This document shows, piece by piece, positions 2,461-36,759 of a stretch of DNA of 37,187 nt. The notes beneath the pieces were generated by a model, which saw only the letters and a program-made list of their open reading frames with translations, had not been told where the DNA came from and did no database searches. The first letter of the stretch is position 1; each line of letters starts with the position of its first letter. The DNA lies in the sequence record SRR20825006_2688; one strand, written 5' to 3'. The translations under genes and the position numbers were made by a program.

Positions 2461-4827
2461 TTACACCAACACGGCAAAGTCCATCCCGCGAAGAGACTCT
2501 TCGCCGTTGCTGACTTGCACGCTGAGCGAACCACTACCAAGCACGGTGTACTCTTCTGATGTCGCCATCTGGATGGTGTACGATCCGGACTCAGCAATGT
2601 CATTGAAGCGGTAGTTCCCACGTTCGTCAGTGACCGCGGTATCGACCACTTCGCCGTTGCTGTCAAGCAGTTCCACCATCACGCCAACCATCGGTTCGGA
2701 GCTGCTGTCATCCCGACGATCGCGCTGGCCGGGCCGGTTGCCGGACTGATCGCGAGCCAACAAATCCACATCCGATTCCGGCACGATCCCGGCGTCCCCG
2801 TCTCGAAGAAGCTGCCCACGGTTGCTGTTTTGTGGCGTTGACGGCTGCTGAGCAACCACCGAACCAGTAATTGTTGGTGAGAAGAAAAACACGTTTTCCT
2901 GCAATGAATCAACGTTGGTGTTGCGAGCGATGATGTCACCCAACGAAGTGTTTTCAATGTCGCGGACTTCGCGATCAGTCATGGTGTTTTCGTACCAGAA
3001 CCGATCGCCATCACGAAGCCTTTCGAATTGATCCGCGATGATGGCTGTCGCGGTTTCGCCCAACGATCCATCCTCGGTATGGTCTTCCGCCAACAAGCCA
3101 ACCCACAGATCGATGTTGTTCACATCTCCGTACAAGGCTTCCAAATTGGCAGCTACGTCGGCATCACTGGTGATTTGATCGAATGAATCAACTGCTTCCA
3201 ATCCATACGCTTCTCGCGTCGAGTTGAAATCAGCCAATCCGTGATCGCGACCACGCTGAATGTTGAGCGATACCAGATCAAATCCGCCGGCTCCGGGAGG
3301 CCCGAACAAGAAGTTCCGCAGGCTATCGACCACCTCCAAATCCACTTCTTGTGACAAGGTCGACGCGGCATATTTCAACAGTGGGTCGATTCCGGTGTCT
3401 TCCAATAGCCCCGATTGAAAAAAGGCATTGGCAAGGGCAATCAACTCGGCCGTCTCGTTGCCATCGTCGTCAACGAATCGGAATTCTTCATTGAGCGTCG
3501 TGTGACCGAACCGGAACGCGGCAGTCGAGAATTCATTGGCAATCGATGGGTCGACGGTTGAGTCGTACCCGGTGTATTCCGCGATCGCGTTTTCACCCAA
3601 CAATGCGGGCAAATATTCGTTCAACGTGATCGACTGCATCTGCGCGATGACGGTTGCCCGAGCTTGTTGGTAGATCTCCTCATCACTGAGCGAAGGATCT
3701 TCCGCAGAGATTTCATCCGCCAATCGGTTGTGTTCTCGCAAGAACAACGCGTGCATGGATGTCAGCACAACGTTCTCGGCTGCACGAATGTCACCCGCCA
3801 GCAGTCCATCGTTTTCATCCGTTGGCAACAATCCGTCGTCCGTAATCAGCAAATGCCCACCGACGAACTCACGCAGTGCATCGGCGGTTTCTTGATCGCT
3901 GCCATAAACTTGCGAACCATCGATCCAAGCCGTGATCGCGTTGACCTGTTCAGCCGGATTGTCGACGGAAGTTCCTGTTCCTTCCGCGAAATCGGAGCGT
4001 GTCAAACCAATCGTGGCTACGCCCGTGTTGAATGGGTCGAAGTAGGCGTCACCTGCGGGTACATCAATGTCAAACGATTCCCCATCGACGTCAGGCGACA
4101 AAGACAAGTCGATGTCATGATCGATGAATTGGCCCCACGCGAAAACGAATGAGCTCAGATCGCGATTGTTTGTGGTTCCATCGGGGTCCGCCGCGGCCAA
4201 CGCGTTGCTGATCTCACGTGCACTTGGTCGGTCTTCACCGCCGGGTTCTGAGATACCGTCGGCATAGTCATTCTCAGCGACCCGCAGTAGCTCCGTATCA
4301 GTCGATCCAAGCTCAGGATTCTCCACCTTGTTGCCTGTTCCATCGATCGATCGGACTTCGTCGGCAACGGAATCTGTTTCATCAGGATTGTCAGGACGAT
4401 CCTGCGGCTGATCATGACCACTGTGGAAGTCGCGATCGCGGTTGAGTCGATTGATCACCATCAATGCATCGAGCGCCGTATCACGACCATCGTTGTTGAC
4501 ATCCGTCATCCGGCCACGGGAAGGACGTGATTGATTGACGCGTTGACCTTCCGCACCTGCGCCATCGGCTCCCTGCAACTGGGAACTGAATCCACTCACC
4601 CCATCACTGTTCATCTGGTTGATGACCGCCAACGCGTCGATCGCAGACACCTGACCGTCTTCGTTGACGTCTTCTGGAAAAGCTTCATTGTGGAACAAAT
4701 TGGCGGCCAACAATTTCCTCGTTTCCAGCGTCTCGGTCCGTAATCGACGCCTCTGCGAACTTCGCCGCCGATTCTTTGAACGAGATGATTGGTGGCCTCC
4801 GATCCAACGATTCCAGAACTTTGTCAT
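2461..4827 (-). CDS. Secreted heme peroxidase of the peroxidase-cyclooxygenase (An_peroxidase) superfamily with dockerin-like N-domain and C-terminal SdrD/CnaB-like domain
   Basis: WGQFIDHD (distal His), GDIRAAEN (distal Arg), AAFRFGHT (proximal His), NIQRGRDHGL. N-terminal RRRLRTETLETRKLLA planctomycete motif and two DVNxDG..A.DAL.VIN dockerin halves. Start moved from 4956 to the ATG at 4827 (MTKFWNRW). Confidence 0.92.
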   Translation of the reverse strand: MTKFWNRWIGGHQSSRSKNRRRSSQRRRLRTETLETRKLLAANLFHNEAFPEDVNEDGQVSAIDALAVINQMNSDGVSGFSSQLQGADGAGAEGQRVNQSRPSRGRMTDVNNDGRDTALDALMVINRLNRDRDFHSGHDQPQDRPDNPDETDSVADEVRSIDGTGNKVENPELGSTDTELLRVAENDYADGISEPGGEDRPSAREISNALAAADPDGTTNNRDLSSFVFAWGQFIDHDIDLSLSPDVDGESFDIDVPAGDAYFDPFNTGVATIGLTRSDFAEGTGTSVDNPAEQVNAITAWIDGSQVYGSDQETADALREFVGGHLLITDDGLLPTDENDGLLAGDIRAAENVVLTSMHALFLREHNRLADEISAEDPSLSDEEIYQQARATVIAQMQSITLNEYLPALLGENAIAEYTGYDSTVDPSIANEFSTAAFRFGHTTLNEEFRFVDDDGNETAELIALANAFFQSGLLEDTGIDPLLKYAASTLSQEVDLEVVDSLRNFLFGPPGAGGFDLVSLNIQRGRDHGLADFNSTREAYGLEAVDSFDQITSDADVAANLEALYGDVNNIDLWVGLLAEDHTEDGSLGETATAIIADQFERLRDGDRFWYENTMTDREVRDIENTSLGDIIARNTNVDSLQENVFFFSPTITGSVVAQQPSTPQNSNRGQLLRDGDAGIVPESDVDLLARDQSGNRPGQRDRRDDSSSEPMVGVMVELLDSNGEVVDTAVTDERGNYRFNDIAESGSYTIQMATSEEYTVLGSGSLSVQVSNGEESLRGMDFAVLV

Positions 4828-5801: not shown

Positions 5802-7061
5802 GTGACCCGATTCCTAGTCGCATTCGTTTGCTTGTTCGCAACATTGAATCTAGCCAACGCCGGAGATTGGCCCGAATTCCTCGGCCCCGCCGGAACCGCA
5901 CACTCCAACGAAGTCGTTCCTACCAACTGGAACGAATCAACCAACTTGGCCTGGAAGGTGGATCTGCCAGGAAGTGGATCTTCCAGCCCGATCATTGTCG
6001 GCAACCGAATCATCGTGACGTGCTATGTCGCCGAGGGTGCCACACCCAAGCGACAAGTGCTGTGCTTCGACAAGAGCACGGGCAAGCCACTCTGGTCTGC
6101 TGACTTTCCAATCGACTACCGCGAAGACGGTTACCAGGGTTACATCACCGAACATGGATACGCCAGCAACTCTCCGGTGACCGACGGAGAGAACGTCTTC
6201 GTCTTTCTCGGCAAAGGCGGTGTTCATTGTCTCGATTTCAACGGCCGAAAAATTTGGAGCGTCGACGTTGGAAAAGAATCCAGCAACCGTCGTTGGGGCT
6301 CCGCAGCCAGCCTGGTCATGTTTGAGAACATGGTCATCGTGAACGCTGCGGAAGAATCCAGCGCCATCTTGGCGTTGGACAAAAACACCGGCAAGGAACT
6401 TTGGCGTCAGGAAGCCGGCATGCTGGAGTTGACCTACGGAACACCTCGCGTGGCAACAACCGCCGGTGGCGATGCCGAATTGGTGATCAGCGTGCCCTCA
6501 GAAATCTGGTCGCTCAACCCCAGGACCGGCAAACTGAATTGGTTCGCCGAATCGCCAATGACCGGCAATGTGTCGCCCTCGGTCATCGTTGACGGCGACA
6601 CCGTTTACAGTTTCGGTGGATACCGCGCGTCCGGTAGCATCGCGGTTCGAGTTGGCGGTGATGATGACGTGACCGACTCTCACGTGCTCTGGACCAACCG
6701 ATCGAGTTCCTACGTTGCGACACCTTTGTTGCACGAGGACCGGTTTTACTGGATCGACGACCGGGGAATCGCTTACTGCACGTCAGCCAAAGACGGCGAA
6801 GTCATTTATCGTGAACGGGTGAACAATCTCGAGAGCGGGCGGCCTGTCTACGCCTCACCAGTCCTCATCGGTGACCAAATCTATGTGGTTACTCGCCGAA
6901 GTGGAACCGTGGTCTATCGACCGGGTGACTCGTTCACGCCGATCGCACAGAACAAGTTCGAATCTGATGACTCGGACTTCAACGCGTCTCCCGCCGTTTC
7001 AGATGGCAAACTCTATTTACGGAGTGATCAATCACTCTATTGCCTTTCCCAAAACGACTAG
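5802..7061 (+). CDS. Secreted PQQ-like beta-propeller repeat protein (BamB-like planctomycete family)
   Basis: Signal peptide followed by DWPEFLGP, WKVDLPGSGSSSP, repeated SP/G..W units and the C-terminal ASPAVSDGKLYLRS..LYC. Likely GTG start at 5802 after GAAGG (ORF open from 5751). Confidence 0.88.
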   Translation: MTRFLVAFVCLFATLNLANAGDWPEFLGPAGTAHSNEVVPTNWNESTNLAWKVDLPGSGSSSPIIVGNRIIVTCYVAEGATPKRQVLCFDKSTGKPLWSADFPIDYREDGYQGYITEHGYASNSPVTDGENVFVFLGKGGVHCLDFNGRKIWSVDVGKESSNRRWGSAASLVMFENMVIVNAAEESSAILALDKNTGKELWRQEAGMLELTYGTPRVATTAGGDAELVISVPSEIWSLNPRTGKLNWFAESPMTGNVSPSVIVDGDTVYSFGGYRASGSIAVRVGGDDDVTDSHVLWTNRSSSYVATPLLHEDRFYWIDDRGIAYCTSAKDGEVIYRERVNNLESGRPVYASPVLIGDQIYVVTRRSGTVVYRPGDSFTPIAQNKFESDDSDFNASPAVSDGKLYLRSDQSLYCLSQND

Positions 7062-7085
7062 CCTTTCGTGTGATCGTATCCGCTC

Positions 7086-7114
7086 AAAACCGCTGAACCT
7101 CCCCGGCAGTTTTT
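7086..7114 (+). terminator. Possible intrinsic terminator after the beta-propeller gene
   Basis: Imperfect hairpin AAAACCGCTG..CGGCAGTTTT ending in a T run, about 25 nt after the stop at 7061. Confidence 0.3.
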
Positions 7115-7257
7115 CGGATGAGCCTTCCGCCCGAAAGTTTGCAGAAGAGTAGGATGTATGTCTGAAATTCACAAACTGGTAGCATGCAGCTTGGGCACGA
7201 TTGTTCGTCGCTTCCCTGACGAACAACGCAAATTGGCGGCATGCGAAACGAGAGCCG

Positions 7258-10200
7258 ATGATGGAGGAAGATCGATCCGCAATTTTGATTGCCGAAAGCA
7301 ATGACCAACGACGAGCATACCTGAAACAGGTCCTCGATCGCCGACACGATTTGGTCACGGTGGATGGCGGCAAATCGGCATGGCAACAACTGACCCAAGG
7401 ACGCTTTGACGCCGTCGTTGCTGGCTTTGATCTTCGCGAAGTTTCCGGCGTCAAACTACTCGCTCAAACTCGTGCCCACGCCGAACTTCGCGGCGTACCT
7501 TTCATCTTGGTCGCGGATGAAGCCAGCCCGGTCGATCCGACAACTTGGCAGCAAGTCTTTGAGTTTGGTCGCAGCGACATTCTGTGCTGTCCGATCAACG
7601 AACACGAACTGCTAGCTCGAATTGACTCGATCATTCGACGAGCGAGGGTGAAGAACGAATCGGCTGACATGCTGCAACGTCAGAAGTCTCGCTTGCAAAT
7701 GGCACTGCTGGCTTCACGAATGGTTGCCGTCGAATGGGACATCTCGGCCGACACGGTTCTCTATTCCGAAAATGCGATTGAGATCTTTGGAATCAAGTTG
7801 TTGTCCGATCACGCGACTGGTCCAACCGCTCGGAAACTCGTTCATCCGGACGATATCGATACGGTCGAGAAGACCATCCGAAACACGCTGCAAGGTTCTC
7901 GCGAATTTCAGACTCAGTTTCGAATCATTCGACCCGACAATGGCGAGATCGTTTGGATCGAGGAACGCGGGTATGTCGCAACTGACACCTCAGGAAAACC
8001 TACCAAACTGATCGCCGTCGCGGTGGATATCACCGCAAGACGCAATGCCGAACAAGCGATCCAGGAACGAGAGCACTACCTGCAAGCGATTTTTGACACG
8101 ACACCAGAATGTATCAAGGTTGTGAAGTCCGACGGCACGCTCACACAGATGAACGCGGCGGGCCTGAAAATGATCGAAGCGAACCCGACCGCCAATGTTG
8201 CGGGTAACTCAGTCTACGAGTTGATCGCCCCCGAATTCCTTGATTGCTTTCGTGAGTTCAATGAGCGAGTTTGCAGTGGCCACAGTGGCGTCTTGGAATT
8301 CGACATCATCGGTTTGCGAGGCAGTCGCCGACACATGGAAACCCATGCGGTGCCGCTTTCACTGACAAGTGGCGAAACCGTCCAGTTGGCGGTCACACGC
8401 GATATCACCGAACGCAAGCGATCCGAAGCCACCCTTCGCGAGAACGAACGACGATTTCGAGCACTCACTCAGGCGACATCCGACATCGTGTTTCGGATGA
8501 ATGCGGATTGGAGCGAAATGGGCATGTTGGAAGGGCGTGCCTTTATCGATAGCACAACCGAACCGAGTCGTTCCTGGTTGGATCACTACTTTCACCCCGA
8601 CGATCAAACCGAAGTTCGAAAGGTTGTCCAAAATTCTGTTGAAAAGCAATCGTTCTACGAACTGGAACACCGCGTCATTCGGATCGATGGAACACTTGGG
8701 TGGATGCACAGTCGAGCGGTCCCGATTCTGGATGACGCCGGCAATGTCGTTGAATGGTTTGGTGCCGGCACTGATGTGACCGAAAGAAAGCAGAGCGAAG
8801 AGTTTCAGCATCGCGCCACGCAAACGCTCCTTACCGTGATCGAGCAATCCCCTCTGGGAATTTACTTGGTCGACGGCGACTTCAAGATCGCACAAGTCAG
8901 TTTGGGAGCGGGACCCGCATTCCAGAACGTCCAACCGGTCATCGGCCGAGACTTTGAAGAAGTGATGCACACGATCTGGCCTCCTGAATTTGCCAGTGAA
9001 GCCGTGCGGATCTTCCGGCACACGCTGAAAACCGGCGAACCGTATGTTTCACCGGGACTGACGGAAAAACGCAAGGACTTGGGCGAAACAGAATCCTACG
9101 AGTGGCAAGTCAATCGCATCACTTTGGCCGACGGCAGTTACGGCGTGGTCTGCTATTTCTTTGACACCACTCGTCTGCAACAAGCCGCGGACGCTCTGCG
9201 TGAGAGCGAGGTTCGATTCCGAATGCTCGCCGACAACATGTCACAACTGGCTTGGACCTGCTGCGATCTGGGCGAGTGCAATTGGTACAACCAACGCTGG
9301 TACGAATACACCGGTTGCACTTTTGAGGAAATGCAAGGTTGGGGTTGGCGACAGGTTCACCATCCCGATCACGTCGATCGAGTGGTCGAACGGATCCAGC
9401 GTGCCGCTACCGCCGGCGAGGTTTGGGAAGACACCTTCCCGCTCAAAGGCCGAGACGGTCAGTACCGTTGGTTCCTCTCACGTGCTGTCCCCATTCGTGA
9501 CGAAGAAGGCACGATCGTGCGGTGGTTCGGAACCAACACCGACGTCAACGAATTGCGTGAGACGCAGCAATTGCTCCACGACGCCGATCGTCGCAAGGAC
9601 GAATTCCTGGCCATGCTCGCACACGAGCTACGCAACCCCTTGGCTCCGATCCGAAGTGGATTGGATCTTCTCGCGATCGCGGATGATGACGAACACCGCG
9701 ATGTCGTTCGAGTGATGCAGGAACAGGTGACCCACGTCGTGCGGTTGGTCGATGACCTCCTCGATGTTTCTCGAATCATGCGAGGCAAAGTTGAACTTCG
9801 CAAGGAACGGATTGAGTTTCAATCGACGGTTCGAAAAGCCATCGATGCAGTCCGCGATGTGATTGAATCTCACGGGCATTCGCTCACGATCACTCTGCCG
9901 GAAGAGACGGTTTGGTTGGAAGCGGATCCGGTTCGTATCGTTCAGGTACTCGAAAACCTTCTCAGCAATGCGACGAAGTACATGGACGGAAGCGGAGCGA
10001 TTGAACTGTCTGCATCCGTGAAGAATGATTCTTTGTTCATTCAGATCAAAGATGAAGGGATCGGCATCGACCAGGAATTCCTCCCGAATATCTTTGAGCT
10101 GTTCGCCCAATCCGATCGCTCGCTCGACCGTTCCAAGGGTGGCCTGGGAATTGGGCTGACGCTTGTCAAACAACTCCTTGAGATGCACGGCGGAAACATC

Positions 10201-25869: not shown

Positions 25870-27831
25870 TCATCGAGGCAGTGGGCGGTGGACGGGAAGC
25901 CCATCCAACAAACCGGGGCGGGCGGGCCCCGTTCGAAACCGGTACCAGAACGCTCCATCGTTCAAACCCCCGGCGGGTTGATTGCCAACTGTGATCCATC
26001 CCGGATCTGACAGCGCGAAATAAGTCGTGTTCGGCTTCAGTCGCGGGAGATCGTTGAATGAGATTTGTCGGGAGCCCTCGTCAGGGTGCCCAGGTTCAGG
26101 ATCCGCTTGCCAAATGACCGATTGGGTGTCACCGGCTTCGTACAAGCGAATGGTTTTGCCGGTTGAATTCGCGAACCGAATTTCCTTCGAAAAATGGAAG
26201 CTCAGTTCTGTATCGCATGGGACATCCATCGCGGACATCGCAGGAACGGCACGCACATAAGCGGGCATGATCATGCGAATGCGGTGGTATCCCCAACCTT
26301 CTTGATATTCTTTCAACGGTGCACGCCACGACGCAGGCATCTTCGTGTTTTCGCGAGCGAACTGGAACCAAGCGTCGCTCATCGCTGACAACACCTCGGG
26401 TCGCTCGGCCGCCAAATCCTGTGACTCCGCCGGATCGTTTTGAATGTCGTGCAGTCGCCACGGCCCATCACTGATGCTGGAAATTTTCCAGTTGCCCTTG
26501 GTCAGCGCCTTGCCAGTCTGGTTGAAGCACCAGAATATCTCGTCGTGAATCGCGAGATTCGGCAGGCCAGGTTTTCGAAGCAACGGCAACATCGAATTTC
26601 CATAAAGCGGTTCCAGCTTGCGATCACCATCATGAGTTGGATACGTCGCACCCGCCAATTCAAGCATCGTTGGATACAAATCCGTGACGTGCAATCGCTG
26701 TTTGCGAATGGCTCCTTCTTGTCCCGACAATTGCGCTGGCCAACGCACGATCAACGGCACAGACACGCCGCCCTCTTGCGCACACGATTTGTACCAACGG
26801 AATGGAGTGTTCTTCAGATACGACCAACCGTTGGAAACAAACGCGTTGCTGCCGGGTTCCCAAGGGATTTGTTGGTCGTAGGTGCGGATGTCGCCGTTGC
26901 TGTAAGCACCACCATTGTCCGCCATGAAGATCACGATGGTGTCCTCATCGAGTCCTTGGTCGCTCAAGTGTTGAAGCAATCGCCCCACGTTCCAGTCCAA
27001 TCGATCCAGCATCCCAGCGTAGGCTGCCATGCGTCGGCTTTCTTGCTCTTGAATCGTCGCCGGCAACTCGTCCCACCGTCGCACTTCTGCATCCGGCTGG
27101 GACATCACATAACGTTCGTCGATCAAACCCATCGCGATCATTCGGTCATAGCGATCTCGACGCAGCTTTTCCCAACCCGCTCGGTAGCGTTCGTAGTACT
27201 TTTCGACGCTCTCGCGAGGTGCGTGCAGCGGTGTGTGCGGCGCATTGAACGCGACTTGGGTGAAGAACGGTTTGCCTTGCCTTCGTGCCGAATCGATCTC
27301 TTCCATCGCACGGTCCGTGAACGCGTCCGAACTGTACCAGCCCTCACTCACAGGTTTGGGTGAATCCCGGTTCGTTTGAATCGCGGGTTTGCCTCGTTCG
27401 AAGCCGGTCCAACTGTCGATCGCACCGCCAAGGAATCCGTAGAAGGAGTCAAAGCCAGCGTCGAGCGGATTGTCGGGTTGATGCCACTTGCCCGAGAGCG
27501 ACGTCGCATAGCCGGACTTCTTCAGCAGACGAGCCACCGGTAGCGAGCGTCGATAATGATCCGACTGAGAATGCGTGTGGCCGGTCATCAGGCTGGTTCG
27601 CGTCACCACGCACATTGGGTTGACGTGAAATCCGCTGAAGCGAACTCCATCGGCTGCCAACTGATCCAAATGGGGCGTGTCGATTTCACCGCCATAACAA
27701 CCGAGATCCGAGTAGCCCACATCGTCCGCGATGATGAGCAAGACATTTGGCTGGTCCGCCGCTGAAACGTTTGGTTCAGCGGGCAGCACCAGCAACAGGG
27801 CGGCAACAAGAAGAAACAAACTTCGCACCAT
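25870..27831 (-). CDS. Secreted S1 sulfatase with C-terminal Ig-like domain
   Basis: Signal peptide, PNVLLIIADDVGY, NPMCVVTRTSLMTG, GKWH, APHTPLH and DNGG. Beta-rich C-terminal extension ending LKPNTTYF..FWYRFRT. Confidence 0.92.
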   Translation of the reverse strand: MVRSLFLLVAALLLVLPAEPNVSAADQPNVLLIIADDVGYSDLGCYGGEIDTPHLDQLAADGVRFSGFHVNPMCVVTRTSLMTGHTHSQSDHYRRSLPVARLLKKSGYATSLSGKWHQPDNPLDAGFDSFYGFLGGAIDSWTGFERGKPAIQTNRDSPKPVSEGWYSSDAFTDRAMEEIDSARRQGKPFFTQVAFNAPHTPLHAPRESVEKYYERYRAGWEKLRRDRYDRMIAMGLIDERYVMSQPDAEVRRWDELPATIQEQESRRMAAYAGMLDRLDWNVGRLLQHLSDQGLDEDTIVIFMADNGGAYSNGDIRTYDQQIPWEPGSNAFVSNGWSYLKNTPFRWYKSCAQEGGVSVPLIVRWPAQLSGQEGAIRKQRLHVTDLYPTMLELAGATYPTHDGDRKLEPLYGNSMLPLLRKPGLPNLAIHDEIFWCFNQTGKALTKGNWKISSISDGPWRLHDIQNDPAESQDLAAERPEVLSAMSDAWFQFARENTKMPASWRAPLKEYQEGWGYHRIRMIMPAYVRAVPAMSAMDVPCDTELSFHFSKEIRFANSTGKTIRLYEAGDTQSVIWQADPEPGHPDEGSRQISFNDLPRLKPNTTYFALSDPGWITVGNQPAGGLNDGAFWYRFRTGPARPGLLDGLPVHRPLPR

Positions 27832-29480
27832 CAGTTGGCTCGCTTTGATGGGTTCGATCCGTTCATTGAATCACGCAAAAACTGATCGCGTAATTCCCAC
27901 CAACGATCCGCCATTTGTTGGACTCGTTCAGGATGCTTGTCAGCCACGTCGTTTTGTTCAGCCCGGTCGTTGGCCAGGTGATAAAGTTGCCAATCACCGT
28001 CTTCTTTGGACTCATTGGCCGCGGTTTCGGAACGCAGCCAAGGAAAGGGGCGAGAGATGTTGGAGTGAATGATCTTCCAATCGCCTTGCCGCAGTGCCCA
28101 GTTGCCTTCGTGATAGAACCACAACTCGTCATGAATTGTGGCATCGCTGTCATCAAAAGATGGTTTCAAACTTTGGCCGCTCATCGGTGGGCCAGCCGTC
28201 TCGTCAAGCTCGACCCTGGCGAGATCTAGCACGGTCGGTGCAATGTCGATCGCGTGTCCAAGATTGGTCCGCAACTCGTTGTTCGAACGGATTCCCTCAG
28301 GCCAATGAACGATGAACGGCGTCGAGATGCCTCCTTCATGCACCCACGTCTTGTGCCGACGGAACGGGGTGTTCGCCGCGCTGCTGAATCCAGGGCCCAA
28401 GCACAGATACGTCGCTGCCGAGCCGGGTGACGCGGAAGGATCATGTCCTTCGCCACGGACCATGATCTCCGCACTCGCACCGTTGTCCGACAGAAAACAG
28501 ATCCAAGTGTTTTCGAATTGGCCCATTTCTTTCAACTGGGCGAGCACACGCCCGATCTCCCGATCCATGCGATCCACCATGGCCGCGTGGATCGCCATCT
28601 TGGTTGCTTGGAATTGTTGTTGCTCTTCGGTCAGCTCAACCCATGGCAACGGGCGAGTGATCTCCCCTTCGCCGAGCACCTCGATCTGGTCGGGGAAGGC
28701 ATAAGGCGGCCCCACCTCTTGCTCGATCGGGGACAGAGGTCCGACGTCCAGCCCAAGTTCGCGTTGCCGTTGTTTGCGTTCTTCCCGCAGTGCATCCCAT
28801 CCGGCGATGTATCGGTCTCGATAACGCTCGATGTCTTCCGGCAAAGCGTGCAATGGAAAGTGGGGAGCGTGGAATGCGAGGAAGTGAAAGAACGGCTGGT
28901 CAGCATGATCCTCGGCGTGTTCCTGCAAACAATCAATCGCGTGTTGAGCGGTCGCGGTGGTCCGATAGAATTTGGGATCGCGATTCTTCTTGCGGATCGA
29001 GTCAAAGAACCCCGGACTTCGGGTGGCTTCGTCGGAGAGATCAAACCCGTTGTTGGTTGGCTTTCCATCGATGTGCCATTTGCCCGAGTGATAGGTGCGA
29101 TACCCAGCCGGGCGAAGGTATTCCGCCAACGTCTGAGCCCAATCGGGGCGTTTTCCACCGCCGCCGTATTGTCGCGTCGCCCCCGGCATGCTGTCACGAC
29201 GCACCTGTTGTGGGTAGTAGCCCGTCATCACCGCCGCTCGCGTCGGCCAACACCTCGCCGTGTTGTAGAACTGCGTGTACCGCAATCCGCCGGCAGCCAA
29301 CGCATCCAAATTGGGAGTCGCAATCTCACCGCCGTAACATCCAGGATCTGAAAACCCCAGATCATCGGCCAGTATCACCAGGAAGTTCGGTCGCTCGGAT
29401 GCCATGGAGGGATTGCAAGCCACGCCCATCCAGGCGACTGCCATCACCCAAATTACATTCCGCACGTTTCGAAAGTTCAT
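27831..29480 (-). CDS. Secreted S1 arylsulfatase-type enzyme
   Basis: RPNFLVILADDLGFSD, ARCWPTRAAVMTG (CxPxR), SGKWH, APHFPLHA and SDNGAS. Start moved to the ATG at 29480 because the upstream extension runs into the REP array. Stop overlaps the next start by 1 nt. Confidence 0.94.
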   Translation of the reverse strand: MNFRNVRNVIWVMAVAWMGVACNPSMASERPNFLVILADDLGFSDPGCYGGEIATPNLDALAAGGLRYTQFYNTARCWPTRAAVMTGYYPQQVRRDSMPGATRQYGGGGKRPDWAQTLAEYLRPAGYRTYHSGKWHIDGKPTNNGFDLSDEATRSPGFFDSIRKKNRDPKFYRTTATAQHAIDCLQEHAEDHADQPFFHFLAFHAPHFPLHALPEDIERYRDRYIAGWDALREERKQRQRELGLDVGPLSPIEQEVGPPYAFPDQIEVLGEGEITRPLPWVELTEEQQQFQATKMAIHAAMVDRMDREIGRVLAQLKEMGQFENTWICFLSDNGASAEIMVRGEGHDPSASPGSAATYLCLGPGFSSAANTPFRRHKTWVHEGGISTPFIVHWPEGIRSNNELRTNLGHAIDIAPTVLDLARVELDETAGPPMSGQSLKPSFDDSDATIHDELWFYHEGNWALRQGDWKIIHSNISRPFPWLRSETAANESKEDGDWQLYHLANDRAEQNDVADKHPERVQQMADRWWELRDQFLRDSMNGSNPSKRAN

Positions 29481-29525
29481 CTCAGTTGTCTCTAGAGGTT
29501 GATTGCAATGTTTTGGAGGTGGTGT

Positions 29526-29636
29526 CCCGTAGGTTGGGCTTCCAAGCCCGACCAAAACAGAGGACGCTGTTTTTTCGACGGTCTAGGAAGACCATCGTAC
29601 TGTTTGCTCCCGACGGTCTTGGAAGACCATCGTACG
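29526..29636. repeat. REP array (BIME/REPIN-like), copy 1 of a 111-bp direct repeat
   Basis: REP-A GTAG-GTTGGGCTT-CC-AAGCCCGAC at 29529-29552 (+). Two REP-B GTAC-GATGGTCTT-CC-(A/T)AGACCGTC at 29577-29600 and 29612-29635 (-). Confidence 0.9.
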
Positions 29637-29669
29637 GTTTCTCGCGTTGCACTTGACCAGTCTCGTCGC

Positions 29670-30362
29670 TCATTTCCCGTCCTTCGAATCCCGAAATCCC
29701 CAGCCTTTCGATTCCCATTCGGGGTGAATCCAGCGAACCCATTGCCGCTCTTCATAACCGGCCTTCTTTGGGTTGTTGCCGATGTACTGAATGACGCGAT
29801 AGAGATGTTCTTCATCTCGGATAATTCGGTCGTGGCTTTCTTGCGTCCAAAGTGGACCCTCTCGATGCAGTTCTCGATTGACCATGCGGCTGACATACCC
29901 TTTCAAGTCTCGAAGAATCTTTTCAAGAAGGTGGTCACCCAAAGGTTTCATCACGAGGTGAACGTGGTTGTGCATCACGCAATAGCAAGACGTGAGATAA
30001 CGATCGTTTTGGAACTGCAACATCGACTTTGCCATCACATCGGCTAACGTAGGGTTCTCAAACACGCACTCGCCGTAGCCTTCGTCCAGCCAGGCTTCGG
30101 TACGGTGAGTGATCTGTTTTGCGAGCAGTTCCCAATCGGCGTCTGTTTGTGGTTGTCCGTTCGATCGCTCCCATATCTCTCGCCATCGTTGAAGGCTTCG
30201 AAGTTGATCTTGTGGAATCGAGTCTGACAGCCGAAATGTGATCGCATAGGTCGCTCCGGCCTGCCGCCAGTGTGGAAGGTGCCGGTGATAAGTTTCGATG
30301 GGCAGATCTGGGTGCAAACCGCGAAAACCGGGAGGAGCATTCAAGTGAAATGTTTCGCTCAC
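29670..30362 (-). mobile_element. REP-associated tyrosine transposase (RAYT / TnpA-REP, Y1 HUH superfamily)
   Basis: RHLPHW..ATYAITFRLSDSIP, YCVMHNHVHLV (HUH), LWTQESHDRIIR and YIGNNP (catalytic Tyr). GTG start at 30362 with an AAGGAG Shine-Dalgarno. REP arrays lie on both sides. Confidence 0.92.
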
Positions 30363-30409
30363 GTGAGACTCCTTATTCTGTTCGAAAGATCCTTCACGCC
30401 TGGTTCCTC

Positions 30410-30545
30410 GCAGGTTGGGCTTCCAAGCCAAGCACCCGTAGGTAGGGCTTCCAAGCCCGACCAAAACAGAAGACGCTGTTTTTTCGACGGTCTTGGAAGA
30501 CCATCGTACTGTTTGTTGACGACGGTCTTGGAAGACCATCGTACG
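30410..30545. repeat. REP array, copy 2 of the 111-bp direct repeat (30435-30545) plus a degenerate extra REP-A
   Basis: Degenerate GCAG-GTTGGGCTT-CC-AAGCC from 30410, REP-A at 30438-30461, REP-B at 30486-30509 and 30521-30544. Bases 30435-30545 match 29526-29636 at 105/111. Confidence 0.9.
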
Positions 30546-30548
30546 TGT

Positions 30549-33218
30549 TTAGCGGCCTGCGTCCGCGAAGTTCCATTCGTGAATGGGGACGCCGTTGCCA
30601 TCGAGCAAACGCATTTGCCGGATTTCGATTTGGCCAGCTCCATTGGACGGATCGATTCGGACGCCCTGCACTGGGCCTTGCGGCGAAAGCTGAATGGAAT
30701 AGGTGTGAACGTTGCCATCATGATTCACATCGAAGACCTGGCTTCGCTCCGCTGAATACGGCTGACCAACTTCCTTCCAGAACACCTGCCCGCGACCCAA
30801 TGAATTTGATTGCATTTCAACGGTGAACGTCATCGTGGATGCCTTCACCAGTTCGGGAAGCGAGAAACTCAAGTGCGGATCACCGCCGGTGCTGCTGACT
30901 CGCAGCACACTGTTGGCGACGGAAAGGTCGCAGGTCCCACCGGGCAACCAACCAGCGACCGGTTTCCGTTGAACTCGCTGCTTGCCCTTCTTGGGTTTGT
31001 TGCCGCTGCGTTTCAGATTGCCTTTGCCTTCGGCGCCCGCGTTGTACTTGGCGGGATCAAAGTTTTTGTTGACCAGCGGTCTGACGGCTTTGGTTTCAAC
31101 CAGATGCTGCTCGATCAACTTGTCCATTTGCTGGACCCGGTCGGGATGTTTTGCTGCCAGGTTGGTTCGTTCACCGAGGTCGTTCTTCAGGTTGAAAAGT
31201 TTGTAGCGATGCGAGCCGTTTGGACCGCCATGAAAGATGCGGATGAGTTTCCAATCGCCTTGATGCACGCTGACCGAAGGCGGCATCCAATTCGGCACAG
31301 GAGGGTCATGAGGAAAGTACGTGAAGATCGCGTCTCGCTGCAGCGGTTTCCCTTGCAATGCGGGAACAATGCTGACACCATCGAAACGCTGGTTCGGCTG
31401 AGCGTCGATCGACAACATCTCCAAAAGCGTCGGATAGAAATCGATGCTTTGAATGATCGCATCGCTTCGTGATCCGGATTCCACCACACCGGGTTGGACA
31501 ACGATCGCCGGGCCACGCACACCGCCTTCGTACATCGTCGCCTTGCCGCCTCGCAGAGGAGCGTTGCTGGTCGCGGTCGTGCCATCGACCTCGTTGTACA
31601 TGTTGCCACCGTTGTCCGATGCGAAAACGATGATCGTTTCGTCGCCGATTCCCAGACGGTCCAGCGTGTCCAGCAACGTGCCAATCGCATCGTCCATGCT
31701 TTCGATCATCGCGGCGTACGTGGGGCAACGTTGCGGATCCTTTGGGTCAACGCGATCTCGATATTCTTCGATCAACTCTTTCTTGGCATCAAACGGTGCG
31801 TGAACGCTAAACATCCAGTAGTTCAGGAAGAACGGCTCGTTTGTGTGTTGCTCGAGGAAGCGAACCGCTTCCTTGGCCATCCGATCCTCGAGGTGCTCGT
31901 CCGGGATCATCGGATCGTGGTCGAAGTCCTTGAACTTCCAAGGTGCGACATAGCTGCCCGCAGGACCTGGCCCGGGATGGTGCGGCACATCGACGTCGAA
32001 ACCATGTTCCAGAGGTGAGTAGGGTTCAGGGCCCAAGTGCCATTTTCCGAAATGCCCGGTCGCGTAGCCGTTGTCACGGAACATCTCCGCCAGCGTGTAG
32101 TACTTTGTGTTCAGACGTGTAACCGATTCGGGGACCGTTGAAAACTTATTCGGCGGGCCGGTCTCAGACACCTTCGGTTCCAAAACCACCTTCGGCAGGT
32201 GACAGGTCGGGGAAGTGATGCCGTGCCGCGCGGGGCTGAGCCCGGTTAAAACACTCGCTCGTGTTGGCGAACACAGCGGGCTGGACGAGTATGCCCGAGT
32301 GAACATCATCCCACGTTTTGCGAGTCGTTCAATGTTGGGTGTCTGATAAAGCTTGGTGGTTCCAAACAGCGTCGTGTCGCTCCATCCCAGGTCATCGGCC
32401 AGGATGAACAGCACGTTGGGACGCTTTGATGCACGGGCATTTGGTATTGCGGCGGGTTCTTTCTTGAGCTCTTTCACTCGGATGTTCTTCCACAACACGG
32501 TGCCTTTCGCACCTTTGTGAACCTGCAGACCGAAAAAGCCTTTGGGGTAGGATCCATCGTCGATCCAGTGAGCCGCTGGCACGCCGTTGATCCAGGTTTT
32601 GACGACGTTGCCCTGAGCAGAAATCGTCACGCGATTCCAAATGTCTTCTTTCGTGGCTGCTCTCGCTTCCTTGTGCTCTTTCAACCACAGTGGATAAAAG
32701 TAACCGCCGCAGCTCTGACCATAGATGCCGCCCGACCAATGACGATCTTGAGTGAAGCCCTCCATCTCTGCCTGAGGACCAAACACCGTTTCCGTTCCGT
32801 TCTTGCCCGGTTTGGATTGAGCACGGAACATCACGCCGCTGTTACAGGACTCTTCCCACTTCATATCGCAGGTAAAAATGAAGTCGTCGAAGTCATCTCG
32901 TTCGGTTGATAGATAAGTGCTGTTGGAACCTGGCACCACTTTGCCAACCAGGATCCCGTCTTTCACCTCAAACGTGCAGCTGCCACCTTTGGCTGTCCAG
33001 CCACTCAGGTCCTTGCCATTGAACAGCGAGGTGAATCCCTCCGACAGATCTGGCTCCGAGTCCGTGTTGAGCAACATCTCCTCGGGAAAAGGAGCGTTGT
33101 CTTGGCCTTTGTACTTTGCATGCCAAGCATGCTGTTGAGGGTCGAGTTCACCCGCCACGACATGGCCAGTGCAAAAGCACATCGCGAAAGCGAGCAGTGA
33201 GAGAGCGATTCGATTCAT
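30549..33218 (-). CDS. Secreted multidomain protein: DUF1080 (3-keto-disaccharide hydrolase-like) + S1 sulfatase + C-terminal beta-rich domain
   Basis: [38 protein letters not shown] (DUF1080), then [28 protein letters not shown] and GKWHLG. C-terminal TGGDPHL..QVFW..VRIDP. Confidence 0.92.
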
Positions 33219-33324: not shown

Positions 33325-36300
33325 TCAATCGACCAGTCGATAAATCGAGATCGATTCGATCATCATTTCGCCAGCATTCGCGTACTCATCGTAAGTCGCG
33401 AAGGGATCGAATCGAAGTTTTCCCACGGTCAAGCCATCGGGAATTGCGAAAAGATAGGCATTCACGGCGTCCGATTGTCGAAGCAACCGCTTGGTTTGCT
33501 GCTGGCCGTTGAAACCTCGGCCGGGAATCGCCCAGTAAAATTGGCTGGTCGAATTCTGTGAGGGCGATGCCCGTAGCTCGATGACTAATTTCCCTTCAAG
33601 CGGTTTAGTCATTCGAACTGCCATCTGCGAATCGTCGCCAGTTGCGACCAGATAAGCCGAGCCATTTCGCTGTTCAATATCAACACTTTTTCGTTCGCCC
33701 CATTGAGCCAGGTCTTGTGGGTTTCGGAAGTCCCACGACTCCAGCTTTGTCGCATCGGTCAGATCGATCTCGCCTGGATTGATGGAGTTGTCTTTTGGCT
33801 CCGATGACTTCAGTGGAACTTTTGCTGGTGCGATGCCGCTGGACGCCGAAAACTCGTAGCTGCCCGAATGAACCGTTAATGCAACCGCATTGATTTCTTT
33901 TCGAAGAATGCTGACGTTCGCGGTGTCCGCTAAAGCGTTTCCACTCTCTGTGATGCTGTTGGCATCGTTCGTCGGAAGGTAGACCGTCGCCGTCGTGTTG
34001 GCCGGGATCGTGACGTTCAGATAAAATCTACCGTCGACCATTTTCCATTCGCTGCGAATCGTTCCGCGAATGGATTCATACGAAGCTTTGACCCAGTTGA
34101 TTGGTTCGTACATCGCGTTGCTTCCGGGTGATGGCGGCGTTGGCCGGATCACAATCCGCTTGAATCCAGGACCGTCGGATTGGATCCCCGCCAGCGTCGC
34201 AAACATCCATTCGCAAACCGCGCCGAAAGCGTAGTGGGAGAACGAGTTCATCGCCGCGTTGTGTCGACCAAATGCATCCTCTTTGGTGTAGCTGTCCCAG
34301 CGTTCCCAAATCGTGGTCGCACCGTTGGAGATTTCGTAACCCCAAGAAGGAAATTCGCGAGACTGCAACAGGAACGTGGCCAGATCATGTTGCCCCGAAC
34401 CTGACAAAACAGGCAGCAACGGTCGTGTGCCGAGGAAGCCGGTCGCCATGTGATTGCCGTTCTCCGACAAACGTTTCGCCAGGTATTTCCCCGTGGCTTC
34501 GCGTTGATCCGCGGGAACCAAATCCGCGAACAATGCCAATGCTTGAGCGGTTTGAGTTCGGACGGTGATGCTGCCATCTTCGTTCAGGTACTTTGCCTGA
34601 AACGCTGCTTGCGTCGCGGCACGCTGCTGGCGGTAAAGCTTGGCTTCTTCATCACGACCGGTTGCTTCGGCCATCTCAGCCATCATCCGTGCCGAGATTG
34701 CAAAGTAAACGGTGTCGATGTAGTCGAGCGGTGTTTCTTCGCCTTGAGACAACCAGTCGCCCCAAGCGTTTCCATGTGACACGCCGAGATCGTTCACGCT
34801 GGTTTGTTTCCGCCACCGCATGAAACGAGTCATCGGTTCCCAGCATTCATCGATCACTCGGGTGTCGCCGTAAAATTGCCAGATCGTCCACGGGCAGATG
34901 ACACCCGCGTCAGCCCACGCCGTTCCGAAGTCCCAACCGTGTTGAAAGGGATACGGAGCGTAGCCGGGGAAAGCCCCACTGGGACGCTGTGACTCCATCA
35001 ACTCGCGAAGCCATTTGGTGTAGAACGCACCGATGTCTGCGTTGTAAGCGGCAGTCGCGACGTAGGCCTGAGCGTCGCCTGTCCATCCCATCCGCTCATC
35101 GCGTTGCGGGCAATCAGTGGGCAGATCGAGGAAGTTGGCTCGTTGGGTCCAGAGCACATTTTTGAAAAGTTGGTTAACCATTGGGTCGCTGCATTCAAAC
35201 GTGCTCGCCATGGGCGTGTCGCTGTGCAGCACCAATCCGGTGACCATGTCCAACGGAGGCGTCTGATCATTCTGCGAGTCTGTCGCTTTGCCTGCGTCCT
35301 CGTTTGAATCCGACAAGCGTTTGACTTCCACGAACTGAAAGCCGTGAAAGGTGAATCGAGGTTGGTAAACTTCCCCGTCGGGATTGCCTTTGCAGGTGTA
35401 GTAGTCCGTCGCTCTTGCCTTGCGAAGGTTCTCGGTCATCAGGCGACCGTCGGGATGCAACATCTCTCCGTAACGCAGTCGAATTCGCTCGCCCTCGCGT
35501 CCTTTGACCTTCAGGCGAATCGTTCCAGCGAAGTTTTGCCCAAGGTCAAAGATGAACGTGCCCGGTTCCAAATTCGACACGGTTTTCGCGTGGATTTCTT
35601 GAGTGACACGAACCGGCACACCGGGAAACGCCTCCAGTTCGGGCCGTTTGAAACCAAAGTCACGTTGCTCGCCGACCTTCTTCACGCCGGCACCAGTCGT
35701 GGTTGGGTTGCGGAACTCGTAGAACGTGGCAGTCACCTGGCCATTTTGCTTCGCCAAAATCGCGTCGTCCCAATGGTCATGATCGAAACCAGGTTCGGAC
35801 CAACCAACCATCTCGCGGCGTGCGTCGTAGGATTCACCCATCAGAAGGTCAGCCTCTTGAATCGGGCCTTCGCCGGTTACCTTCCACGTCGTGTCGGTTC
35901 CGATGGTTTGTTTCGTTCCGTCTTCGAATTCGATCTCGAGTTGCGACATGAACGAAGGAGTCTTTCCGTAGGTTGATCGCCCGTTCTTTTCCGGCCCCAT
36001 CCCGGTCAACAATCCAAAACCTACATAGCCGCTGTACCAACCGTCAGCGACCCAAGCACCGATCGCGTTGTCGCCTTGGCGAACCAAGTCGGTGACGTCG
36101 TATGTGTTGTAGTAGGCTCGCTTTCGATAGTCCGTCCAACCAGGCGCGAAGCTGGCATCGCCGACACGTTGACCGTTTAGATGCAGCTCATAGATGCCGA
36201 GTGCCGTTGCGTAAACAGTGGCACGTTTGATCGATTTGGAAGCCGAGAACTCTTTTCGATACTGTCGCGCCGCTGGCAGGTGAAGCGTTGAAAGATCCGT

Positions 36301-36759
36301 GTGGATCGGCGAGTCGTCGCGATAGCTGATGTAGTCGGCGGACCAATCGCTTTGGTCGAGCAATCCCATCGACCAGGAGGCGACCTCGCTCTCGGTTGCG
36401 TTGCCAGCCCCATCCCAGACCTGGACCTTCCAAAAGCATTCTTGGCGACTTGAAAGCGGCCTGCCCGCGTACTCGACGAACAAGGTTTGATCAGATTTCA
36501 CCTTGCCGGAATCCCAAAGGTCACCGACGCCAGATCCAAGCTGCTCTTCCGAAGAGGCGACAAGCAACCGATACGCGGTCTGCGATTGTCCCCGTCGATC
36601 GGATGTGACCTGCCAACTCAATCGAGGCCGAGCGGAGTCGATCCCGGTCGGATTCTCCAGGTATTCACACCGCAATCGTTGTGGCTCGAGAGCGGAAACG
36701 GACGACGAGGCCGCGACGCAGATTGCCGTCAGAAACAGAATGGATAGGAGCGTCTTCAA
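33325..36759 (-). CDS. Secreted alpha-L-rhamnosidase, glycoside hydrolase family 78, with extra C-terminal domain
   Basis: LRCEYLENPTGID..PRLSW, LWDSGKV, TALGIYE, FDLGQNFAG, PRFTFHGFQFVEV, PTDCPQRDERMGWTGDAQ, GATTIWERWD and MNSFSHYAFG. TTG start with signal peptide. Confidence 0.96.
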   Translation of the reverse strand: MKTLLSILFLTAICVAASSSVSALEPQRLRCEYLENPTGIDSARPRLSWQVTSDRRGQSQTAYRLLVASSEEQLGSGVGDLWDSGKVKSDQTLFVEYAGRPLSSRQECFWKVQVWDGAGNATESEVASWSMGLLDQSDWSADYISYRDDSPIHTDLSTLHLPAARQYRKEFSASKSIKRATVYATALGIYELHLNGQRVGDASFAPGWTDYRKRAYYNTYDVTDLVRQGDNAIGAWVADGWYSGYVGFGLLTGMGPEKNGRSTYGKTPSFMSQLEIEFEDGTKQTIGTDTTWKVTGEGPIQEADLLMGESYDARREMVGWSEPGFDHDHWDDAILAKQNGQVTATFYEFRNPTTTGAGVKKVGEQRDFGFKRPELEAFPGVPVRVTQEIHAKTVSNLEPGTFIFDLGQNFAGTIRLKVKGREGERIRLRYGEMLHPDGRLMTENLRKARATDYYTCKGNPDGEVYQPRFTFHGFQFVEVKRLSDSNEDAGKATDSQNDQTPPLDMVTGLVLHSDTPMASTFECSDPMVNQLFKNVLWTQRANFLDLPTDCPQRDERMGWTGDAQAYVATAAYNADIGAFYTKWLRELMESQRPSGAFPGYAPYPFQHGWDFGTAWADAGVICPWTIWQFYGDTRVIDECWEPMTRFMRWRKQTSVNDLGVSHGNAWGDWLSQGEETPLDYIDTVYFAISARMMAEMAEATGRDEEAKLYRQQRAATQAAFQAKYLNEDGSITVRTQTAQALALFADLVPADQREATGKYLAKRLSENGNHMATGFLGTRPLLPVLSGSGQHDLATFLLQSREFPSWGYEISNGATTIWERWDSYTKEDAFGRHNAAMNSFSHYAFGAVCEWMFATLAGIQSDGPGFKRIVIRPTPPSPGSNAMYEPINWVKASYESIRGTIRSEWKMVDGRFYLNVTIPANTTATVYLPTNDANSITESGNALADTANVSILRKEINAVALTVHSGSYEFSASSGIAPAKVPLKSSEPKDNSINPGEIDLTDATKLESWDFRNPQDLAQWGERKSVDIEQRNGSAYLVATGDDSQMAVRMTKPLEGKLVIELRASPSQNSTSQFYWAIPGRGFNGQQQTKRLLRQSDAVNAYLFAIPDGLTVGKLRFDPFATYDEYANAGEMMIESISIYRLVD

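Follow-up and report, generated by a model that had tools for sequence, protein, structure and literature searches.

A RAYT gene between duplicated REP cassettes in a planctomycete operon, and a RAYT-free junction with a single cassette at the orthologous site of R. europaea

How does a RAYT gene come to lie between two near-identical repeats at a site from which it is absent in a sister species, and does it move by itself? The RAYTs (REP-associated tyrosine transposases; REP, repetitive extragenic palindrome) are the textbook case of a transposase that ceased to move itself and now serves, or is exploited by, REP repeats and their paired form, the REPINs (REP doublets forming hairpins). To our knowledge, the gain, loss and relocation of RAYT genes are poorly known outside the Proteobacteria. 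The question is raised here by a stretch of 37,187 nt of the sequence record SRR20825006_2688 (hereafter the window), in which a RAYT gene is located between two direct copies of a cassette of REP hairpins (positions 29526–30545, the RAYT locus), and by the orthologous junction of Rhodopirellula europaea 6C. We suggest that this locus is probably an ordinary REPtron, i.e., a RAYT gene with REPs on both of its sides, whose flanks stem from the local duplication of a block and which differs from the sister species by a repeat-mediated insertion/deletion (indel). New in our study are the recognition of the cassette pair as a local segmental duplication and the RAYT-free, solo-cassette orthologous junction in R. 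europaea 6C.

A repeat search, with which the alignment agrees, finds one direct-repeat family at the locus, consisting of two copies of 111 nt that are 95% identical (6 of the 111 positions differ) and whose starts are spaced by 909 nt (Table 1). Each of these cassettes comprises a REP-A whose GTAG foot lies on the plus strand, a spacer of 24 nt that is itself a small hairpin (AAAACAG...CTGTTTT), and two inverted REP-B copies with a GTAC foot; the position of the foot assigns REP-A to the plus strand and both REP-B copies to the minus strand. The REP-B motif (GACGGTCTTGGAAGACCATCGTAC) has four matches with at most one mismatch, all scored on the plus strand (0 expected from 100 shuffles), and the REP-A motif (GTAGGTTGGGCTTCCAAGCCCGAC) has two (again 0 expected in shuffles), while a relaxed hairpin pattern is matched at seven sites in the window, all of them at the RAYT locus (shuffle mean, 0.23). 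When REP-B is reverse-complemented, it matches REP-A in 19 of the 24 positions; the two types differ by one compensated stem pair (GGGCTT/AAGCCC vs GGTCTT/AAGACC), and both combine their GTAG or GTAC foot with a 10-bp stem that carries a T.G at the same position. Both cassettes, on both strands, fold better than shuffled sequences (z between −2.9 and −5.1), and in the predicted folds the REPs pair in several alternative ways. The succession of REP-A (+), a 24-nt linker with its own hairpin, and REP-B (−) is the arrangement of a bacterial interspersed mosaic element (BIME) or REPIN, and the seven hairpins, imperfect palindromes with a conserved foot, place REPs on either side of the gene, as in a REPtron. 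An extended form of the repeat begins 6 nt earlier (29520 and 30401), and a 28-nt internal tandem duplication in cassette 2 adds a truncated REP-A' with a GCAG foot. Direct homology of 111–117 nt borders each side of a unique segment of 764 nt that holds the RAYT alone. An earlier reading made from the letters of the window (the sequence-only reading) had described an intact Y1/HUH RAYT between 111-bp direct repeats built as REP-A(+), spacer, REP-B(−), REP-B(−); the measured spacing, the foot positions and the motif matches bear out this description.

The origin of the two cassettes is told by their spacer. One scan of genome contigs with a 22-nt degenerate REP pattern yielded at least 122 loci, of which 80 came with 4-kb flanks and among which the source genome of the window is not represented. 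Across these loci and the window, the core of the spacer hairpin was matched with up to one mismatch at three places only, namely cassette 1, cassette 2 and the orthologous cassette of R. europaea 6C; the sole other match among the loci listed is an unrelated site (L067) at four mismatches. Since the spacer hairpin is private to the RAYT locus and its orthologue, cassettes 1 and 2 represent a local segmental duplication: at the level of the sequence, both flanks are shown to be one BIME-like three-hairpin cassette that was duplicated locally as a block. An origin of the 111-nt repeat from two generic REP clusters, or by chance, is ruled out by this locus-private spacer.

The R. europaea 6C locus that holds the orthologous junction (L076) aligns to both flanks of the RAYT locus with 85–88% nucleotide identity and 89–92% amino acid identity (89% for the DUF1080-sulfatase protein and 92% for the downstream sulfatase). 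Between the two sulfatase genes, it contains no RAYT and a single, rearranged cassette with the shared spacer hairpin. Read in the plus orientation of the window, the order of its parts is a conserved leader, a degenerate and truncated REP-A, an insert of 190 bp, the remaining 3' half of REP-A, the shared linker hairpin, one REP-B and the stop codon. The insert (L076:4063–4252) possesses inverted ends of about 12 bp (CACCCCACATCT / AGATGTGGGGTA) and splits REP-A; no second copy that would mark it as a multicopy miniature inverted-repeat transposable element was detected in the at least 122 loci listed or in the window, and a search of L076 against Rfam gave no match at the gathering score. No remnant of the 764-nt RAYT segment was found in L076 (best tblastn E, 1.3; blastn matches of only 8–19 nt), and a decayed RAYT in the europaea junction is therefore not supported. 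Compared with R. europaea 6C, the RAYT locus thus differs by a clean indel of the RAYT plus one cassette, and the two breakpoints of this indel are both located within repeats. Inspection of this junction in a relative had been proposed by the sequence-only reading, for which a RAYT fixed throughout the genus, with no solo-cassette alleles, would have been an adverse result; as R. europaea 6C has no RAYT and one cassette, a solo-cassette allele does occur and fixation of the locus throughout the genus is refuted.

The gene between the cassettes is, by sequence and structural model, a RAYT/TnpA-REP gene and, by family, would encode a Y1 HUH single-strand DNA nuclease/ligase. Its product matches the Pfam domain Y1_Tnp (PF01797) with 27.1 bits against a cut-off of 23, and its best NCBIfam family is REP_Tyr_transpos (NF047646; E 6.8e-20), compared with an E of 0.0079 for IS200. 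The residues H133, H135, Y193 and N197 are invariant in 37 aligned sequences, and the RAYT reads NHVH ... QYIGNNP in these regions. An AlphaFold model built from 37 sequences (pLDDT, the predicted local distance difference test score, of 84.9) finds in Foldseek the E. coli RAYT in complex with a REP hairpin (4er8_A; E 2.2e-5) as its top PDB match, after which the TnpA structures of IS200, IS608 and ISDra2 are ranked; all 16 PDB chains at E <= 0.001 are Y1 transposases. Judged by eye only, the NHVH and YIGNNP motifs fit subclass 2.4 (Bertels group 4) as excerpted from Table 1 of PMC6006769. An AAGGAG sequence (30374–30369) is positioned 6 nt upstream of the GTG start codon, and this start is common to 36 aligned homologues; a 289-aa open reading frame (ORF) beginning with an ATG at 30539 was rejected as the gene, because its first 59 residues translate cassette 2 and the homologues start at the GTG. 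A total of 527 homologues were found at E <= 0.001, the best of which are 99, 79, 74, 71 and 70% identical to the RAYT; most are unnamed, and some are labelled 'REP element-mobilizing transposase RayT' by a source. It should be noted that the source names in the lists of RAYT and sulfatase homologues are those of cluster representatives only, and a close RAYT may hence be present elsewhere in R. europaea.

The REP pattern of the locus recurs in other genomes. The at least 122 loci stem from numerous assemblies of Pirellulales and of other planctomycetes, besides a few Poribacteria and metagenome-assembled genomes (MAGs) labelled Deltaproteobacteria; among the loci listed, R. europaea 6C has at least five with exact REP-B copies, and other Pirellulales assemblies have up to at least 32 loci each. 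The REPs of R. europaea are found singly, as inverted pairs or in tandem runs, and their linkers are unrelated. At the variable stem pair, the 192 distinct matches listed read G-C in 184 cases, T-A in six, T-C in two and G-A in none, which indicates that pairing is kept, and all six T-A forms originate from R. europaea. From the sister species we infer that the RAYT of the window would have a genome-wide REP population. The REPs of the scan are mostly dispersed without a RAYT: tblastn gave no RAYT match in 79 of the 80 loci with 4-kb flanks. Among 18 fetched RAYT homologues, several exceed about 240 aa through N- or C-terminal extensions that translate REPs (MAFQGRR, DGLGRPSY, VRWTSKSV); in P0105, the C-terminal tail corresponds to REP clusters that one assembly carries at five loci, and the RAYT at L014, of 30% identity, lies between its own GTAG REPs, which are in direct orientation and 790 nt apart. 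Flanking REPs therefore look like a trait of the RAYT family, as far as these sequences indicate.

Several side observations concern this family. The L014 segment of a Pirellulaceae MAG (6565–7557; RAYT at 6625–7287) is a second, unrelated REPtron with GTAG REPs of another family at 6565 and 7355 and with inverted copies downstream, and the same locus also contains an inverted pair of the scanned REP family (3942–4022). The homologue P0107 (55% identity, 282 aa) includes an internal stretch that looks REP-coded (...ALEGHRT...ALECH...), and its gene appears to carry an inserted REP, like subclass 2.4 in the excerpted Table 1 of PMC6006769. Long arrays are present at L056:4001–4481 (seven REP copies repeating every 62 nt, after which comes one in inverted orientation), at L074:3900–4030 in R. 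europaea (three tandem REP-B) and at L059:203–476; going by their repeat structure, these arrays show local hairpin amplification away from any RAYT. Exact 22-nt matches outside the Pirellulales were recovered from Poribacteria (L034, L036, L049, L069, L087) and a member of the Gemmataceae (L071), and six loci with the exact pattern from one 'Deltaproteobacteria' MAG (L015, L016, L028, L030, L044, L047). With about four chance matches expected in 596 Gb by our own estimate, single matches outside the Pirellulales may be due to chance, while the six loci in one MAG are not. The longest contig is shorter than 1400 bp (less than 700 bp beyond the gene) for 37 of the 120 listed RAYT homologues, and measures 896–1050 bp for 20; among the listed sulfatase homologues, contigs below 2350 bp are found for only 3 of 120. 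Assemblies that break at the repeats flanking RAYT genes would explain the short contigs, but the comparison is biased by short genes and contig-length cut-offs and is suggestive at most.

How, then, would the two alleles have come about? In the preferred reading, the REPtron lies in the spacer between two sulfatase genes of a cluster for the use of rhamnose and sulfated sugars. By analogy with characterised RAYTs, its enzyme would bind single-stranded REP hairpins (5' GTAG/GTAC foot, imperfect stem) and cut and rejoin the adjacent DNA, an activity that would spread and reshuffle REP/REPIN units elsewhere in the genome, in trans. The indel may then have resulted from recombination between the cassettes, either by host homologous recombination or by RAYT-catalysed REP-to-REP strand transfer. 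As for its direction, we lean towards loss of the RAYT in the europaea line; recombination between repeats yields an identical product either way, and the europaea allele hence fits loss and gain equally. The series of RAYT identities (99, 79, 74, 71 and 70%) resembles that of the neighbouring sulfatase (92, 82 and 76%), as expected for mainly vertical descent, a weak pointer that is not decisive. In E. coli, a precise deletion has removed tnpA-REP from some strains and left the BIMEs on its sides in place, as described in PMC3333891; according to PMC8266576, PMC6006769 and the Bertels & Rainey preprint, evidence for RAYTs moving themselves is lacking.

A number of points weigh against the view that an ordinary REPtron underlies the locus. 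Searches of the 37-kb window for REP-A, REP-B and the relaxed hairpin pattern found no REPs outside the RAYT locus, and the match of the RAYT to NF047646, at 71.4 bits, stays below the cut-off of 80 for this REP-associated tyrosine transposase equivalog. A phmmer search of the PDB sequences returned no RAYT or transposase at E <= 1, so that a fold search was needed to reach the transposase structures. The europaea cassette, which has a single REP-B where two would be expected, a REP-A that is degenerate and truncated, and the 190-bp insert, is not the product of a simple in-register recombination, and at least one further event is needed. In a stretch of 45 nt that begins with the 3' half of REP-A and extends to the first REP-B, one position distinguishes cassette 1 from cassette 2, whereas three to four positions distinguish them from the europaea cassette; this hints that the duplication, or the last homogenisation, is younger than the split of the species, and gain or gene conversion would in that case fit better than an old REPtron, although the counts are too small to carry much weight. 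Finally, the transcription of the RAYT, which would depend on read-through from the operon (see below), is counted as a weak point.

Among the competing explanations, the one put forward by the sequence-only reading fares best, and we nevertheless regard it as doubtful. According to this proposal, a circular molecule of about 909 nt, made up of the RAYT and one cassette, integrated into a solo cassette by homologous or RAYT-catalysed recombination and can be excised again, which would make the RAYT self-mobile. The solo-cassette allele that it predicts was indeed found in R. europaea 6C, where the orthologous site carries the locus-specific spacer as well; both breakpoints lie inside repeats and no unique sequence of the RAYT segment has remained; the REP feet on one strand on both sides of the gene correspond to an IS200/IS605-like topology; cassettes 1 and 2 show slightly fewer differences between them than either shows from the europaea cassette; and REP DNA is cut and rejoined in vitro by the TnpA-REP of E. 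coli, as reported in PMC3333891. However, deletion between the repeats gives the identical allele, and the comparison was of two species only. Furthermore, the spacer occurs in none of the at least 122 loci listed besides the orthologue, so that no second copy of the cassette was seen among them; tblastn found no close RAYT in any fetched locus; the RAYT identities follow those of the sulfatase, as they would under mainly vertical descent; and RAYT self-mobility is not reported in the portions of the three RAYT sources named above. The observations of the sequence-only reading are thus confirmed and its interpretation is partly supported: the solo-cassette allele exists, and simple deletion between the repeats predicts it as well as integration of a circle does. 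That the 909-nt module of RAYT and three-hairpin cassette is mobile through REP-to-REP recombination by its own Y1 enzyme on single-stranded DNA is, in our judgement, improbable to the same degree.

A second alternative, which we consider rather unlikely, is amplification or homogenisation in cis: the RAYT would already have resided at the site, accompanied by a single cassette or by REP flanks that were unlike, and would then have copied the whole 111-nt unit to its other flank, or the flanks would have been homogenised by gene conversion, and the absence of the RAYT in europaea would be a later deletion. Local copying at the RAYT locus is attested by the internal tandem duplications of 28 nt and 35 nt, and the low divergence of cassettes 1 and 2 (6/111) is in keeping with a copy of this kind. 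In an excerpt of the Bertels & Rainey preprint, REPINs are thought to be copied as units together with their spacer, the spacers of old copies being variable, and REPs pile up beside tnpA-REP in Marinomonas, which the authors of PMC8266576 read as local multiplication. Yet this route requires two events, the copying and the subsequent deletion in europaea, and the present data fit other routes alike. The weakest candidate, an autonomous IS200/IS605-type insertion sequence with the cassettes as its left and right ends, is disfavoured and very improbable: the Y1_Tnp domain, the hairpins in direct orientation at both ends and the IS200-family structures among the fold matches would suit it, but the match to the NCBIfam IS200 model (NF033573) reaches only 16.4 bits where the cut-off is 55, a tnpB is absent, one cassette persists at the RAYT-free orthologous site, which is therefore not an empty site, and the same REPs are dispersed without a transposase.

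Viewed against known systems, the preferred reading, an ordinary REPtron, has a precedent; both the term REPtron and the arrangement are already in print (excerpts of PMC3333891, PMC8266576, PMC3733652 and PMC6006769). The closest counterpart is the REPtron of E. coli K-12 (tnpA-REP/yafM; Ton-Hoang et al. 2012, PMC3333891, in part), which likewise comprises a Y1 HUH gene in one intergenic space with REP/iREP pairs on both sides (GTAG foot, imperfect stem), which is present or absent among close relatives with the repeats kept at the site, and whose protein provides the 4er8 fold, the best PDB match of the RAYT studied here. The two proteins share only 16% identity over the structural alignment, however, and the RAYT of the window has 230 aa compared with a 165-residue chain; its motifs, judged by eye, fit subclass 2.4 and not 2.2, the flanks are one block duplicated with its linker and not independent BIMEs, and the REP feet are GTAG and GTAC. 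The REPIN-RAYT systems of Pseudomonas (Bertels & Rainey 2011; 2022 preprint) share the inverted REP pair with spacer beside a RAYT that is typically single-copy and vertically inherited, with spacers that vary between old copies. In contrast, the RAYT described here is of another group, its unit contains an extra tandem REP, and it is missing from the corresponding extragenic space of the sister species. With the IS200/IS605 elements (IS608, ISDra2), the locus has in common the Y1 HUH fold and subterminal hairpins on one strand at both ends, and their single-strand circle intermediate is the mechanistic model for the proposal of a RAYT-cassette circle. Unlike these elements, the RAYT has no IS200 equivalog match, the unit ends in copies of a repeat that is dispersed, the allele that lacks the RAYT is not empty, and multiple copies of the unit are not in evidence among the loci listed. 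GTAG-footed short palindromes associated with RAYT genes have been described for the Planctomycetes among the REP families of the PVC superphylum (Di Nocera et al. 2013; part of PMC3733652), and the REPs and RAYT of the window resemble these families in both respects.

The features of the locus and its neighbours are compiled in Table 1. All genes from the rhamnosidase through RhaA are located on the minus strand, and the RAYT is co-oriented with them. Cassette 2 lies 3 nt from the TAA stop codon of the DUF1080-sulfatase gene, cassette 1 lies 45 nt from the ATG (29480) of the next sulfatase, and no gene is disrupted; the distances of 3 nt and about 45 nt, the shared orientation and the intactness of the neighbouring genes had all been stated correctly beforehand. 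Only 38 nt separate cassette 2 from the RAYT start codon. Since a promoter would not fit into this gap, transcription of the RAYT most likely depends on read-through from the sulfatase gene upstream, and, given the same short gap, a RAYT that is inducible by rhamnose through read-through is plausible. A scan of positions 29300–30800 for promoters and terminators found sites no more often than in shuffles, and Rfam gave only a sub-threshold RgsA match (15 bits vs 88) between 29300 and 30700.

Table 1. Features of the RAYT locus and neighbouring genes (positions in the window)
Feature	Position	Strand	Remarks
RAYT / TnpA-REP gene, 230 aa	29670–30362	−	GTG start; HUH = H133-V-H135; catalytic Y193
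Cassette 1, RAYT 3' side	29520–29636		111-nt repeat 29526–29636
Parts of cassette 1	REP-A 29529–29552; spacer hairpin 29553–29576; REP-B 29577–29600 and 29612–29635	REP-A +; REP-B foot on −	
Cassette 2, RAYT 5' side	30401–30545		111-nt repeat 30435–30545 plus 28-nt internal tandem duplication
REP-A', truncated extra copy	30408–30432	+	GCAG foot, ends after CCAAGCC; 1 mismatch
REP-A, cassette 2	30438–30461	+	GTAG foot; 1 mismatch; predicted fold
REP-B, inner copy of cassette 2	30486–30509	−	0 mismatches
REP-B, outer copy of cassette 2	30521–30544	−	0 mismatches, GTAC foot
REPIN/BIME-like inverted pair, cassette 2	REP-A 30438–30461, spacer hairpin 30462–30485, REP-B at 30486		
Alpha-L-rhamnosidase	33325–36759	−	
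DUF1080 (3-keto-disaccharide hydrolase) + sulfatase, 889 aa	30549–33218	−	PF06439, 1.4e-38; PF00884, 1.3e-56
Sulfatase, 549 aa, downstream neighbour	27831–29480	−	PF00884, 1.3e-53
Sulfatase	25870–27831	−	
Aldehyde dehydrogenase, class II aldolase	further downstream	−	
RhaA	20579–21862	−	

Three observations concern the sulfatase genes themselves. The stop of the downstream neighbour and the start of the next sulfatase ORF share one base (27831), which fits translational coupling within an operon. Gene callers begin the downstream sulfatase inside REP-A, as a 574-aa ORF in the window (with 29481–29555 as its additional part) and as a 575-aa protein in P0122, so that REP-coded residues (…GSPTY…) head the protein. 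Just upstream of …GSPTY…, the N-terminus of P0122 departs from that of the window and also from that of R. europaea 6C, a hint that the junction has a third allele.

Peptides encoded by REPs contaminate gene calls, with sulfatases that are made to start inside REP-A and RAYTs that are made to start inside REP-B. The position of REP hairpins and a nuclease gene inside an operon for polysaccharide utilisation may affect the operon mRNA; the practical side of this is small. For the biology of the RAYT family, the window and R. europaea 6C, two related marine planctomycetes, offer a clean allele pair, in which the RAYT lies between duplicated cassettes in the former and a single cassette is present in the latter, and the private spacer makes the copies of this cassette traceable. 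If the 909-nt module were mobile after all, the window and R. europaea 6C would represent its occupied and unoccupied states, and this would be the first RAYT that moves itself.

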